DNA from: Candidatus Nomurabacteria bacterium
GTDB taxonomy: Bacteria; Patescibacteriota; Minisyncoccia; Phycocordibacterales; UBA918
Assembly (NCBI GenBank): GCA_020632095.1
Contig: JACKGF010000002.1
Location: forward strand, 144,502 to 208,501
Reading direction: 5' to 3'
Length of the DNA: 64,000 bases
The position numbers and the translations under genes are program-made. Below the pieces are notes generated by a model. That model was given only the letters and a program-made list of their open reading frames with translations. It was not told the origin of the DNA and did no database searches. This document shows, piece by piece, positions 15,552 to 27,257 of the stretch (position 1 is the stretch's first letter; every line of letters starts with the position of its first letter).

Positions 15552-17066
15552 ATGAGTAAATATGTCCTCTATGCACGAAAGTCCTCTGAAAGCGAAGATA
15601 GGCAAGTAAAATCACTAGACGCACAAGAGTCTGAAATGCTCACCATTGCTAAGCGTGAAGGACTAGAGATTGTAGAAATCATTCGTGAATCACATTCAGC
15701 AAAAACAACGAAGCAACGACCCGAATTCAACCGAATGATTAAGGGTGTACAGTCTGGCAAATACACTGCCATTCTGACATGGGCACCTGACCGAATCTCT
15801 CGTAACGCTGGTGACCTTGGTGTAGTCATTGACCTAATGGACGCAGGAAAACTTCAATGTGTAAAAACCTACTCACAAACGTTCTTCAATGACCCATACA
15901 GCAAGTTCATGTTTATGATGCTCGGCTCCCAAGCCAAGCTAGAAAACGACCAAAAGAGCTTGAATGTAAAACGAGGTAACCGAGAAAAGCTAAAACGTGG
16001 CGACTGGATTAATTCAGCGCCTTTTGGCTATTTGAATGACAAAGCAACTAAGACTATTGTCCTAGACCCTGAACGAGCTCCATATGTATCTCAAATGTTT
16101 GAACTGTATTCATCTGGACTCTATAGCCTTAAACAAATAGCTTCCCTTTTGTTTGATAAAGGACTACGCACTAAAGGCGGTAAAAAACTAAGTGCTGGTC
16201 AAATTCATAAAATCATCAACCGCACCTTCTACTATGGGGTTATGGAATCTGACGGAAAATACTATCAAGGCAATCACGAACCTATAATCTCTCAGAAACT
16301 ATTCGAACAGTGCCAAGAAATATCTGGAAGCAAATCACGACCTCGCAAGAAAACGAAGGGCTTTACCCTATCTGGATTCATTACTTGCGATAAGTGTGAC
16401 TGTGCCGTTACTGCCGAATTAAAGAAAGGTAAATATATTTACTATCATTGCACTAATGGTAAGGGTATTTGTGACCAAAAATCTTTCAATACAAACGAAG
16501 ATACTCTCCATGACTTTATTACTCTAGACATGAAAAAGCTAAAGATTAGTCAAAGAATGGTAGATATCGTATACACAGCGAAACTAGAAGAATTAAAACA
16601 ATCTGGTGACTTTCATAACCATGCACTAGACACTGCTCGTAAAGCTCTAGAATCGCTCTCTATGCGTAAATCAAGGCTGATTGATACCTTCACTGCTGGC
16701 GACATAGAAGAGACACTATATCGTGAAAAACTACTAACACTCGATAATGAGAAGGTGAACCTAGAAAAACAAATCGTTGAAATTGAGAAAAATAACCCTG
16801 ACCCGTACACAACTATCGAACTCGTCTATAATCAGTTTAAACGAGGCTATACAATGTCGAAACGGTACAGAGATGCTTCACCAGAAGAAAAACGAGAAAT
16901 TCTCTCAGACGCACTATCGAACTCCAAGCTACTAGATAGAAATATCGTTGATTTACAATACAAAAGCCCGTACGATGTGTTCGCACGGACTCCTGTAAAT
17001 GCCTCTTTTTCAGAGTTGCTGCCGGACAGGGACTCGAACCCCGATAGACGGCACCAAAAACCGTAG
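15552..17066 (+). CDS. large serine recombinase/integrase
   Basis: N-terminal resolvase domain with catalytic Ser (YARKSSESEDRQ..SLDAQ), recombinase domain, Cys-rich zinc ribbon (CDKCDC..HCTNGKGIC), C-terminal coiled coil; last about 16 codons overlap the tRNA-Gln 3' end. Confidence 0.85.
   Translation: MSKYVLYARKSSESEDRQVKSLDAQESEMLTIAKREGLEIVEIIRESHSAKTTKQRPEFNRMIKGVQSGKYTAILTWAPDRISRNAGDLGVVIDLMDAGKLQCVKTYSQTFFNDPYSKFMFMMLGSQAKLENDQKSLNVKRGNREKLKRGDWINSAPFGYLNDKATKTIVLDPERAPYVSQMFELYSSGLYSLKQIASLLFDKGLRTKGGKKLSAGQIHKIINRTFYYGVMESDGKYYQGNHEPIISQKLFEQCQEISGSKSRPRKKTKGFTLSGFITCDKCDCAVTAELKKGKYIYYHCTNGKGICDQKSFNTNEDTLHDFITLDMKKLKISQRMVDIVYTAKLEELKQSGDFHNHALDTARKALESLSMRKSRLIDTFTAGDIEETLYREKLLTLDNEKVNLEKQIVEIEKNNPDPYTTIELVYNQFKRGYTMSKRYRDASPEEKREILSDALSNSKLLDRNIVDLQYKSPYDVFARTPVNASFSELLPDRDSNPDRRHQKP
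17013..17036. repeat. attR-like direct repeat (within intact tRNA-Gln 3' end)
   Basis: GAGTTG-CTGCCGGACAGGGACTCG; 18-mer identical to 10941-10958. Confidence 0.7.
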
Positions 17067-17088
17067 TCCTACCATTAGACGATCCGGC
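17020..17088 (-). tRNA. tRNA-Gln(TTG)-like (Glu/Gln-type D arm); integration target
   Basis: minus-strand RNA GCCGGAUCGUCUAAUGGUAGGACUACGGUUUUUGGUGCCGUCUAUCGGGGUUCGAGUCCCUGUCCGGCA; anticodon stem ACGGU/GCCGU, loop UUUUGGU; T-loop UUCGAGU; acceptor/D-arm geometry slightly non-canonical by hand folding. Confidence 0.55.
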
Positions 17089-17175
17089 AAGGGATCTGTT
17101 TCTGTCAGTTACTAAAAGATGTAATCAAATAGATATCTGCTTTGGTGGGCCTAGGATAGCATAAACTTCGTATAT

Positions 17176-21607: not shown

Positions 21608-22492
21608 TTAATCTTTAGTATCTAATTTTGCATCTAAAAATTCTTGAATTTCCCCATTGAGCACCTTGTCAATATTGCGCACTTCAGTGTTGGTGCGGTG
21701 GTCTTTTACCAATTGATAAGGATGTAAAACGTAGGAACGAATCTGGCTTCCCCACTCAATTTTAAGAGATTTTTCTACCGCTAGCCCTTGGAGTTCACGG
21801 GCCCGTTGTGCTTCCTCAAAAGCAAAGATTTTTCCAGCCAACAAAGCCATGCCTTGCTCACGGTTTTGTTGTTGTGAACGTTCAGTCGAAATATTCACCG
21901 AAATGTTGGTAGGCTTGTGAACAATCCGTACAGCGGTCTCGCGCTTATTAACATTTTGACCACCAGCACCACCAGAGCGAGCGAAGGTAATCTCTAGATC
22001 GTCTTCATTTAATTCTACAGCGGAAGTATCTTCCAACTTCGGCGAAACTTCCACCAATACAAATGAAGTTTGACGCTTACCATTTGAATTAAAAGGTGAA
22101 ATACGCACCAGACGATGGACGCCTGATTCGTTCTTAAGCGTGCCGTAGGCATTCTTACCCTGAATTTCAAAAGTTAGGTTACGATAACCGTTTTGATCAT
22201 TGGTATTACTATCAATAATCATCACCCCCCAACCTTTACTCTCAGCAAACTTTTGATACATCTCCACCAGCATCCGCGCAAAATCTTCAGCATCATCACC
22301 GCCGGCGCCAGCCACAATGGTAAAAACAGCGTAATTTCTGTCATATTTACCTTTTCCATCGGCAGTATCTTTTAATTCTTGCAGCTCCTTTATCATCGCC
22401 TGCGCTAGCTGAGAATCATTCCAAAAAGTCGGCTCCAGCATCGCTGCTTCGATTTCTGCAATTCTTTGCTGGTTTTCTTGAGTGTCTGACAT
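21608..22492 (-). CDS. prfB: peptide chain release factor 2 (short N-terminus)
   Basis: GGQ motif [20 protein letters not shown]; SPF tripeptide (RISPFNSNG) marks RF2. Confidence 0.85.
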
Positions 22493-22547
22493 ACCACTGA
22501 GTATAACAAAATTAGGGGTGCGTTGCCTACGGCAACGCGCACCCCTT

Positions 22548-23036
22548 TCAAAAAATATGTTTCACCCAAACTATTGTCGGTTTTTCACTCATCTCACCTC
22601 GGGCTTTGTAGCCAAGGGATTTGTAAAAACCAGCATTATTTTTAAGGGGACTGTTAGTAAAAAAGATAACAATACCTGTCATCCAACAACTCCACCTAAA
22701 CTTAATCATACTTTCAAGCGCGGTCATCGCTTGTCTACCAAAGCCCTTACCGTCGAACCCCTCCCGAACAGCTACGTTATTTACAACGGCCTGAAACGCG
22801 GATAAAACTTTGACTCGAGAAGCTTGAGCCATTGCTACCAACTGATTCTCACTGATTACAAAAGAAATCACATCGTCATTGGAGTTAAGTAACTCTCTAA
22901 AGAAGAATGGACTTACCCACAAAGATTCTCCGTGCAGTCGCCGTAGGAGTGTTTGATACTGCAAACTAACAACTTCAAAGTCCATCCACTGCAAAACCTG
23001 ATTTGAAACACAGATCGTACTGTTTGGCCACATCAT
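22548..23036 (-). CDS. GNAT family N-acetyltransferase
   Basis: acetyl-CoA binding motif [17 protein letters not shown]; start placed at MMWPN.. because the upstream ORF extension is translation of a GC hairpin (23093-23115). Confidence 0.6.
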
Positions 23037-23128
23037 GATTGACACCTCCTTTTCTGTGGACACTTTATATAATAACCTTCTGGAATACAAGTGGGCGCGG
23101 CCTACGGCCGCGCCCACCCTCCACTCTG

Positions 23129-23393
23129 AGCCAACACACAGAATCGAACTGTGGACCTCATCCTTCGCTTACACCCTTTTTTAAACACTTGTAGATATAA
23201 AGGGGCTAGACTGTATCTTGTACCAAACTAGGCACTCCCTTGTCAGTCGTTCGGGCCTATTATAGGCCACGGTCTTGGCTACTACATTAGCTATTAACCG
23301 TTATTCGGGATTCATCTTATGTGTTACCACATAAGCGGGCGGGGATCATTGCGACCCACCATGGATGCGCTCTACCGACTGAGCTATGTTGGC
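23129..23393 (-). tRNA. tRNA-Thr(GGT) interrupted by 192-nt intron in anticodon loop
   Basis: 5' exon GCCAACAUAGCUCAGUCGGUAGAGCGCAUCCAUGGU (23393-23358); 3' exon AAGGAUGAGGUCCACAGUUCGAUUCUGUGUGUUGGCU (23165-23129); exons join to a canonical cloverleaf closely matching E. coli tRNA-Thr(GGU). Confidence 0.75.
23166..23357 (-). ncRNA. group I-like self-splicing intron within tRNA-Thr, between anticodon positions 36/37
   Basis: 5' exon ends in U that can pair as U.G in a P1 with intron CCCGCC; intron ends in G; P7-like GACUG...CAGUC; S-like element AAGAUACAGUCU; GNRA (GUAA) tetraloop hairpin CUUAUGUG-GUAA-CACAUAAG. Confidence 0.6.
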
Positions 23394-23480
23394 AAAAGTA
23401 TCGGCTCGCAACCTTTCGATTGCGTCGTAGATATTATCACGAATCTTGGTGTTTGAGAAATTAATTACCTAGACAACAGA

Positions 23481-23509
23481 TTGCAAAAAAACGTAAAATT
23501 GGCTATACT
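23481..23509 (+). promoter_or_regulatory. sigma70-like promoter (TTGCAA-17-TATACT) for tRNA-Asp
   Basis: consensus-like -35/-10 with 17-nt spacer about 30 nt upstream of tRNA start. Confidence 0.45.
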
Positions 23510-24359: not shown

Positions 24360-24433
24360 GTGTCGACGGGAGGATTTGAACCTCCGACCCCAGCTTTATG
24401 AGTGCTGTGCTCTAACCAACTGAGCTACGCCGA
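24360..24433 (-). tRNA. tRNA-Met(CAT), elongator or Ile2-type
   Basis: GUCGGCGUAGCUCAGUUGGUUAGAGCACAGCACUCAUAAAGCUGGGGUCGGAGGUUCAAAUCCUCCCGUCGAC; anticodon loop CUCAUAA. Confidence 0.8.
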
Positions 24434-24487
24434 CGTGGGGCTAGATTACACTATTTTCCCACTCGTTTCAACAAAATTACTCACGCT

Positions 24488-26824: not shown

Positions 26825-27187
26825 TTCAGTACTCCTGAATTATTAAATTATGAAGGTTCAAAACTATTAGTAGTAATATTATAACTTTTATTTGATGTCA
26901 ACAACAAACGGCTAAGGATTTTTGAGTACCTTCCATAGAGCGTAACTGCCCCACCAAGATTAGCAGTAAGGGAGTCAGAGACGAATTGAGTTTTCATCAA
27001 TACTTCCTCTTCAATATAGATGTTATGGTTCTTGGTACTATACCTATATTAAAAAATACCATAGAAATATAAAAATCAATAGACACAAGAAAGGTGGTTA
27101 TTGGGTTCTTTGATGATTTTACGATTCATATTAAACCTAACACAAAACAGTCCTAGTGTAGTACCTAGAACAGTTTTGGAATCTTGT

Positions 27188-27257
27188 TGCGGGGCCCGGA
27201 ATCGAACCGGGGTCTGGAGGTTATGAGCCTCCCGAGGTGCCTCTCCTCTACCCCGCT
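27188..27257 (-). tRNA. initiator-like tRNA-Met(CAT)
   Basis: AGCGGGGUAGAGGAGAGGCACCUCGGGAGGCUCAUAACCUCCAGACCCCGGUUCGAUUCCGGGCCCCGCA; A1.A72 mismatch and G-C-rich anticodon stem base suggest initiator identity. Confidence 0.7.

Follow-up and report, generated by a model that had tools for sequence, protein, structure and literature searches.

A Probable Group I Intron between Positions 36 and 37 of tRNA-Thr(GGU) in a Candidatus Nomurabacteria Contig, and Its Relatives in Patescibacteria

Introduction

The IC3 introns in the transfer RNA (tRNA) genes tRNA-Ile(CAU) of Azoarcus and tRNA-Arg(CCU) of Agrobacterium were reportedly described by Reinhold-Hurek and Shub in 1992; that of Azoarcus, ~205 nucleotides (nt) long, is self-splicing. 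Introns of tRNA-Arg(CCU) and tRNA-Ile(CAU), also designated "Arg.5Ug" and "Ile2.5Ug", have their classical site between positions 36 and 37 (Williams 2020; Nakagawa et al. 2026). The settings known for bacterial tRNA group I introns have since been extended from 4 to 21, in a study whose covariance model was seeded with introns of bacterial tRNA and transfer-messenger RNA (Williams, bioRxiv 2020). The closest described cases are found in Patescibacteria, where three complete genomes carry introns at 36/37 of tRNA-Thr(GGU) (Nakagawa et al., mSystems 2026, PMC13011429, Table 1). These are among the "divergent group I introns", a term attributed to Castelle et al. (2018), and two of the three are named Arg(GCG) 34/35 by ARAGORN, whereas tFind names them correctly (Nakagawa et al. 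2026). Here, we analyse a 64,000-nt stretch (the window) of a Candidatus Nomurabacteria bacterium (contig JACKGF010000002.1, positions 144,502 to 208,501), in which a tRNA-Thr(GGU) gene on the minus strand is interrupted by a 192-nt insert at the same site.

Results and Discussion

The Split Gene and Its Homologs

The tRNA-Thr(GGU) gene of the window is very probably split between U36 and A37 by a group I intron without an open reading frame (ORF). Its parts, with the evidence for each, are as follows:

23358..23393, minus strand: exon 1 of tRNA-Thr(GGU), 36 nt, comprising the acceptor 5' strand, D arm, anticodon-stem 5' strand and loop positions 32-36 (sequence, ARAGORN)
23166..23357, minus strand: ORF-less intron of group I architecture, 192 nt (family hidden Markov model, consensus structure, covariation)
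23129..23165, minus strand: exon 2 of tRNA-Thr(GGU), 37 nt, comprising A37 A38, anticodon-stem 3' strand, variable loop, T arm and acceptor 3' strand (sequence, ARAGORN)

On the minus strand, exon 1 reads GCCAACATAGCTCAGTCGGTAGAGCGCATCCATGGT and ends in the anticodon GGU, with U36 (23358) as the U(-1) of the 5' splice site; exon 2 reads AAGGATGAGGTCCACAGTTCGATTCTGTGTGTTGGCT and ends with the discriminator U, CCA not being encoded. Joined, the two are called by ARAGORN as a tRNA-Thr(ggt) of 73 nt, and the coordinates that an earlier, sequence-only reading had given for both halves and for the insert proved exact. The same reading had taken the insert for a group I intron, an assignment now backed by 115 homologous loci, by an ordered series of helices from P1 to P9, and by a P3/P7 pseudoknot and a P9.0 helix.

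Homologs were retrieved with an exon-anchored pattern that specified tRNA features only and no intron sequence: the D arm GGTAGAGC, 7 free bases, TGGT followed by a non-A base, a gap of 170-230 bases, then GA, 7 free bases, GGTC, 4 free bases and GTTCRA. This exon-only pattern matched the window once and 100 shuffles not at all. On GTDB, with one genome per species, it returned at least 120 loci with the same split gene. Among the matches listed, 116 of 120 contain a homologous intron, nearly all in metagenome-assembled genomes (MAGs) of Patescibacteria, and the lineages represented are Saccharibacteria, Parcubacteria/Paceibacteria and Kaiser-, Wolfe-, Nomura-, Azam-, Moran-, Jorgensen-, Peregrini- and Peribacteria. 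The published count, three complete genomes, greatly understates the spread of the family, which is present in at least 116 species-level genomes. One homologous intron, aligning throughout, occurs in the complete genome of a Candidatus Wolfebacteria (CP011209.1), which shares its 2015 accession series with a published case and is presumably GCA_001029635.1.

A MAFFT alignment was built from 114 distinct homologs and the window (115 sequences), four loci with an IC3-looking intron being left out. Intron length in this family ranges from 176 to 230 nt. The window intron aligns over its full length with the homologs and has ~65 invariant columns in common with them, yet its sequence differs from theirs, none of the 114 retrieved here exceeding 79% identity to it. 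Against the family hidden Markov model (HMM) it scores 128 bits (E=1e-37, nhmmer), and the same search found no second copy in the window. A compact intron family is fixed at tRNA-Thr 36/37 in many Patescibacteria. Host gene, site and phylum are those of the published "divergent group I introns", as is the response of the annotation tools, Rfam model RF00028 being blind to the intron and ARAGORN reporting Arg(GCG) 34/35. This kind of intron, including its host gene, site, phylum and annotation pitfalls, is therefore already published, and the sequence-only reading needs correcting on two points: Patescibacteria tRNA-Thr(GGU) introns at 36/37 are tabulated by Nakagawa et al. (2026), and 36/37 is not a nonstandard location, since it is the classical site in tRNA-Arg(CCU) and tRNA-Ile(CAU). 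The finding is correct but ordinary, because the family was on record at this site in this gene.

The gene is nonetheless easily lost in annotation. Standard pipelines miss it (tRNAscan-type searches, RF00028) or misname it (ARAGORN, as Arg or His); genomes consequently seem to be without tRNA-Thr(GGU), and both the estimated completeness and the inferred codon usage of Patescibacteria are distorted. The 115-sequence alignment, with its well-supported structure, could seed a proper covariance model.

The four loci set apart also carry their intron at 36/37 of tRNA-Thr(GGU): L006:4062-4320(+) in a Bacillaceae MAG, L065:1540-1809(+) in an Alphaproteobacteria MAG, L100:6048-6292(-) and L120:2486-2744(+). 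These IC3-looking introns are 204-229 nt long and end ...GCGAAAGC...G, and none of them is matched by the family HMM. A different intron at the same site means that the site has been colonised at least twice.

A further retrieved locus lies in a cultured Bacteroidota isolate, Niastella populi CCTCC AB 208238, where a 300-kb contig (NZ_LWBP01000002.1, L035:5196-5450(-)) holds a 181-nt intron of the Patescibacteria type in tRNA-Thr(GGU). The gene stands in a stretch of 40% G+C beside a tyrosine recombinase, a fragment of a TraD-like coupling protein and a serine recombinase. This copy may have been acquired horizontally with an integrative element, or may be a contaminant; should it prove genuine, splicing could be tested in a culturable host. 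In one Patescibacteria MAG, the contig with the Thr intron also bears a second split tRNA, tRNA-Tyr(GTA) (L012:7625-7895(-)), ~4 kb from the Thr gene and adjoining an intact tRNA-Thr(UGU). Its 185-nt group I intron is of a more conventional type, with the core ...GUAGAGACUAGA...GAUGAUAUAGUCC.

Secondary Structure and Splice Sites

Given the alignment as its sole input, RNAalifold returned the anticodon stem across the intron, followed by P1, P2, P4, P5, P6, P7, P8 and P9; the P3 pseudoknot was added by hand before pairs were counted. All elements lie on the minus strand:

23338..23360, minus strand: P1, exon G34 G35 U36 plus intron GGG (23360-23355) with the guide CCCGCC (23343-23338) (covariation)
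23313..23337, minus strand: P2 hairpin, 10 base pairs (bp) plus one bulged A, with the GNRA tetraloop GUAA at 23327-23324 (9/9 aligned pairs covary)
23307..23309, minus strand: P3 5' strand CCC, pairing with GGG 23239-23237 and forming a pseudoknot with P7 (99.1% paired)
23269..23301, minus strand: P4 (23301-23296 with 23274-23269) enclosing P5 (23291-23288 with 23281-23278) (pair counts)
23254..23268, minus strand: P6 hairpin GGCCU/AGGCC (compensatory changes in 4/5 pairs, including GG/CC to CC/GG)
23244..23250, minus strand: P7 5' strand GACUG (23248-23244), preceded by bulged C 23249 and A 23250 (invariant, 99.8% paired)
23237..23239, minus strand: P3 3' strand GGG, reached through the invariant J7/3 ACAA (23243-23240) (alignment)
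23220..23235, minus strand: P8 hairpin, GUGCC (23235-23231) with GGUAC (23224-23220) (4/4 pairs of the family P8 covary)
23209..23219, minus strand: J8/7 AAGAUA (23219-23214) and P7 3' strand CAGUC (23213-23209) (invariant)
23166..23206, minus strand: 3' domain with P9.0, the P9 hairpin (23204-23199 with 23179-23174) and the omega G, 23166 (covariation)

Compensatory changes occur in 35 of the 53 RNAalifold pairs, with double changes in P2, P3, P5, P6, P8 and P9. Standard pairs fill 95.8% of 6069 cells, against 35-45% when the 3' partners are slid by 1-3 columns; the covariation score is 0.508 (at most 0.116 when slid), and none of 500 shuffles reached any of these measures. In P1, the G-C, G-C and U.G pairs are invariant (115/115), the wobble being 23358.23340, whereas covariation is seen at the three intron-side pairs, where a Saccharibacteria-type subgroup has UA/UA in place of GGG/CCC. 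The P2 loop is GNRA in 110 of the 115 sequences. In P3, all three pairs show compensatory changes from C-G to U-A, and all four pairs of P5 covary; P4 (ACGGUU/GACCGU) is invariant and 100% paired. Between P4 and P5 lie the A-rich J4/5 (UAA) and J5/4 (CAAG), whose junction A's are invariant, and J3/4 (GAAU), J4/5, J6/7 (CGA), J7/3, J8/7 and the guide GCC are invariant or nearly so. The J8/7-P7 columns A159, A161, U162, A163 and CAG.C are identical in 115/115 sequences. In P7, 113-115 of 115 sequences keep the layout A-U, bulged C, G-C, A-U (23250-23247 with 23210-23208), an invariance that gives no covariation test, and 113-114 of 115 agree at each of columns A127, C128, U169 and A170. This order resembles the guanosine-binding layout of Tetrahymena P7, and by that analogy G 23248-C 23209 would be the putative guanosine-binding pair.

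At the 3' end, P9 covaries at all six pairs. P9.0 consists of 2 bp (GC 23206-23205 with GC 23168-23167) adjoining the terminal G; it is 96.5% paired, against at most 50% when slid, with 65 double-change cells and four forms (GC/GC, AC/GU, AU/AU and GU/AC). The omega G, one column next to this covarying helix, is present in 115/115, an invariance partly imposed by the search pattern, which demanded G then A within a 60-nt length range.

In the window copy, all helices and all family-invariant bases are retained. Folded alone (z = -2.5), its sequence gives P2 and P4-P9 as the minimum free energy (MFE) structure, while P3 forms in the centroid. Its P8 is one column out of register in the MAFFT alignment, yet 5 bp can be read directly from the sequence and also appear in the MFE fold. 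The elements that the sequence-only reading had picked out all have a place here: the U at the 5' splice site pairs with G 23340 within P1 (GGU|GGG with CCCGCC), the 3' terminal intron G is 23166, the GACUG (23248-23244) and CAGUC (23213-23209) strands are P7, the S-element-like stretch is AAGAUA before CAGUC, and the GNRA-capped hairpin is CUUAUGUG-GUAA-CACAUAAG. What is new is a covariation-supported secondary structure, including P3 and P9.0, which is a modest addition to the published record.

The structure also settles the junction, which at the level of sequence is ambiguous by 2 nt (G|GU...AAG|CG). Run by default, ARAGORN reported no tRNA in the window beyond four without an interruption (Gln, Asp and two with CAU), nor did the Rfam tRNA model; in its intron mode, ARAGORN found the split gene and named it tRNA-Arg(gcg) i(35,192), that is, with the intron after position 34. 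Such a tRNA-Arg(GCG), whose 34/35 cut would also leave G as the last intron base, is hardly credible: G rather than U would stand at -1, while the invariant U.G pair falls at U36 and the bases engaged in P9.0 are the two that immediately precede G 23166. The U.G pair of P1 fixes the 5' splice site at 23358/23357 and P9.0 fixes the 3' splice site at 23166/23165; the 34/35 call is therefore wrong and was rejected. Among the candidate cuts, 36/37 alone yields U(-1), a terminal G after the covarying P9.0 and a sensible anticodon. ARAGORN names the homologs Arg, His or Thr, an inconsistency which identifies its call as an artefact of the 2-nt ambiguity, and the same miscall is listed by Nakagawa et al. 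(2026).

With the cut at 36/37, splicing would start from the pairing of the anticodon GGU and the first intron bases with the guide CCCGCC to form P1, the U.G wobble lying at the splice site. An external guanosine held at the P7 G-C pair would attack after U36; the terminal G (23166), positioned by the 2-bp P9.0, would then take the place of the external guanosine, and the freed 3'-OH of U36 would attack after the terminal G, joining the exons and releasing the intron. The joined exons would form a normal anticodon loop (A U G G U A A). Both this chemistry and its independence of protein are what we infer from the architecture. The anticodon stem (23367-23363 with 23163-23159) spans the intron, and across the 115 sequences all five of its pairs covary and 99.8% of cells are paired. 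This covariation across the intron means that the exons are joined and that the spliced tRNA is under selection; as judged from sequence, the spliced tRNA-Thr is functional.

Points against the Group I Reading, and Alternatives

Several observations weigh against a working group I intron. P3 is merely 3 bp; P4 and P7 never vary, so that covariation is mute on both; P10 has at most 1 bp, with a C-A mismatch in the window. RF00028 gave no match in the whole window at the gathering threshold, nor in 23000-23500 (501 nt) at E<=10 (cmscan, Rfam 15), and it gave none on four homologs. Beyond the J8/7-P7 motif, the family has no significant profile similarity to validated tRNA group I introns. Published in vitro splicing tests concern only Asn and Asp introns at 35/36 (Nakagawa et al. 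2026), and the ARAGORN survey that found no other tRNA-Thr covers the 64-kb window.

The Rfam result is the absence of a covariance-model hit which the sequence-only reading had proposed as its refutation, and at face value it stands as such; the structure was for this reason checked independently. The seeds of RF00028 include no bacterial sequence (Williams, bioRxiv 2020), and its failure on tRNA-Thr introns at 36/37 is documented as a false negative (Nakagawa et al. 2026), which is why we set the miss aside as counter-evidence. Even on the four IC3-like Thr introns, RF00028 scored L100 alone, at 44.8 bits and below the gathering score. The miss is thus a property of the model and not a refutation. 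The same missing match might suggest that the insert is not of group I at all, being instead a bulge-helix-bulge intron spliced by proteins, what is left of a group II intron or a small mobile insertion. We give this next to no chance: no Rfam family of any kind matches the intron region (cmscan, E<=10), and the covarying helices, pseudoknot, U.G pair, omega G and P9.0 are jointly specific to group I, although no search was aimed at terminal repeats, direct or inverted. Moreover, the junction of endonuclease-spliced introns is canonically 37/38 and not 36/37; in bulge-helix-bulge introns the splice sites lie in 3-nt bulges, whereas here they lie in P1 and beside P9.0, and the host is bacterial.

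A second alternative, drawing on the missing RF00028 match and on a genome view of 64 kb only, is that the locus is dead, a decayed intron or insertion in a tRNA-Thr pseudogene whose function is supplied by another tRNA-Thr(GGU) gene. This is very unlikely, since the window copy retains all the family-invariant bases and helices, and since the split gene recurs in at least 116 species-level genomes, where the intron and the intron-spanning anticodon stem alike show compensatory changes. In addition, intron-bearing and intron-less genes of one anticodon seldom coexist in a genome (Nakagawa et al. 2026).

A third alternative leaves the group I identity in place and concerns autonomy: the intron may be genuine but need a host protein, or the folded tRNA body, for efficient splicing. 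The family is very small (176-230 nt), has shed its peripheral domains (a P3 of 3 bp, no P5abc or P7.1/P7.2 extensions, negligible P10) and diverges from RF00028, all of which fits such a dependence, as does the restriction of the published splicing assays to the 35/36 introns. Conversely, the GNRA loop of P2, P9.0 and the complete invariant core, which lend stability to small autonomous introns, are conserved; no protein encoded in the intron or consistently linked to it was seen, and small tRNA introns such as that of Azoarcus (~205 nt) self-splice. On balance we consider this dependence doubtful. If the intron does self-splice unaided, it would be among the smallest natural introns to do so, the shortest family members having 176 nt against ~205 nt in Azoarcus, and would be useful as a minimal model for structural work.

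Relation to Other Group I Introns

The family belongs to group I by architecture but stands apart in sequence. Its HMM found no match to the validated Patescibacteria Asn (IA) intron or to the Anabaena Leu and Ile2 IC3 introns, and against the Arg(TCT) IC3 intron it scored 7.6 bits, on the J8/7-P7 stretch AAGAUAUAGUC only. With the classical IC3 introns of Azoarcus Ile(CAU) and Agrobacterium Arg(CCU) it has in common the 36/37 site, small size, lack of an ORF, the U.G pair at -1, the omega G and a GNRA-capped P2. No sequence homology to IC3 is detectable with the family HMM, however, and the cores differ: P4 ACGGUU/GACCGU, P7 GACUG/CAGUC and J8/7 AAGAUA in the window family, against a GUGYAGAGACUA-type core in IC3.

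Subgroup IA is said, in the classification of Michel and Westhof, to be marked by the extra helices P7.1/P7.2 between P3' and P8. In the present family P8 starts 0-1 nt after P3', which leaves no room for them. By covariance-model classification and a tree with long branches, the published Thr introns were placed in the IA clade and not in IC (Nakagawa et al. 2026). In that tree they group, on long branches, with the Patescibacteria introns at 35/36. These resemble the present family in phylum, in their position in the anticodon loop, in being mostly ORF-less, in the GNRA-capped P2 and in J3/4 (GAAU). They differ in lying one position earlier, in being detected by RF00028, in being longer (~230-260 nt in examples) and in going unmatched by the family HMM. 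No sign of phage origin was seen: the locus matched nothing among phage records in blastn, and the exon-anchored pattern gave 0 hits in viral contigs.

Genome Neighbourhood

The window is bacterial chromosome of 39% G+C, with pyrG, ftsE, ftsX, prfB, a GNAT gene, ligA and gatA. The products of pyrG, ftsE, ftsX, prfB and gatA are 70-93% identical to proteins flanking the same intron in four other MAGs (L049, L070, L080 and L024, from Patescibacteria, Paceibacterota, Kaiserbacteria and Nomurabacteria), and prfB lies within the 8-kb locus in 44 loci among the matches listed. By these identities and the shared neighbourhood, the window belongs to a Patescibacteria genome, and the conservation of the neighbourhood argues for vertical inheritance of the tRNA-Thr locus. 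A much broader picture would be that of a separate, ancient, vertically inherited lineage of minimal group I ribozymes, seated in what is possibly the sole tRNA-Thr(GGU) gene across much of Patescibacteria and kept through extreme genome reduction as an RNA-level splicing checkpoint on tRNA-Thr supply; we put it forward as a speculation that is, taken as a whole, unlikely.

A promoter and terminator scan called no sigma-70-like site on the tRNA strand and no terminator. A G+C-rich hairpin follows the tRNA-Thr gene (23093-23115, minus strand), and a second follows the GNAT gene (22517-22547, minus strand); they read GGGCGCGGCC-GUA-GGCCGCGCCC and GGGGUGCGCGUUGCC-GUA-GGCAACGCACCCC, both with a ...CC-GUA-GG... 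loop. The first was passed over by the consensus scan because it is without a U-run, and the two may be instances of a terminator or repeat motif particular to the lineage. The release factor 2 homolog (21608-22492, minus strand) has only 294 amino acids, and its PCRF domain match begins at profile position 94. Its ATG at 22492 directly follows a terminator-like hairpin and a promoter-like TTGTTATACT; given this start and the late PCRF match, the protein appears to lack the N-terminal domain, as opposed to having it concealed by the usual prfB frameshift.

Elsewhere in the window, a large serine recombinase ORF of 504 amino acids (15552-17066, plus strand) has Resolvase, Recombinase and zinc-ribbon domains. 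On the opposite strand lies tRNA-Gln(UUG) (17018-17089, minus strand), whose 3' part the ORF overlaps, and this overlap may mark an element integrated at tRNA-Gln. Two tRNAs with a CAU anticodon occur within 3 kb of each other (24360-24434 and 27186-27257, both minus strand). In the second (27257-27187), A1 is unable to pair with position 72, a 1-72 mismatch that is flagged in the Rfam alignment and is typical of a bacterial initiator.

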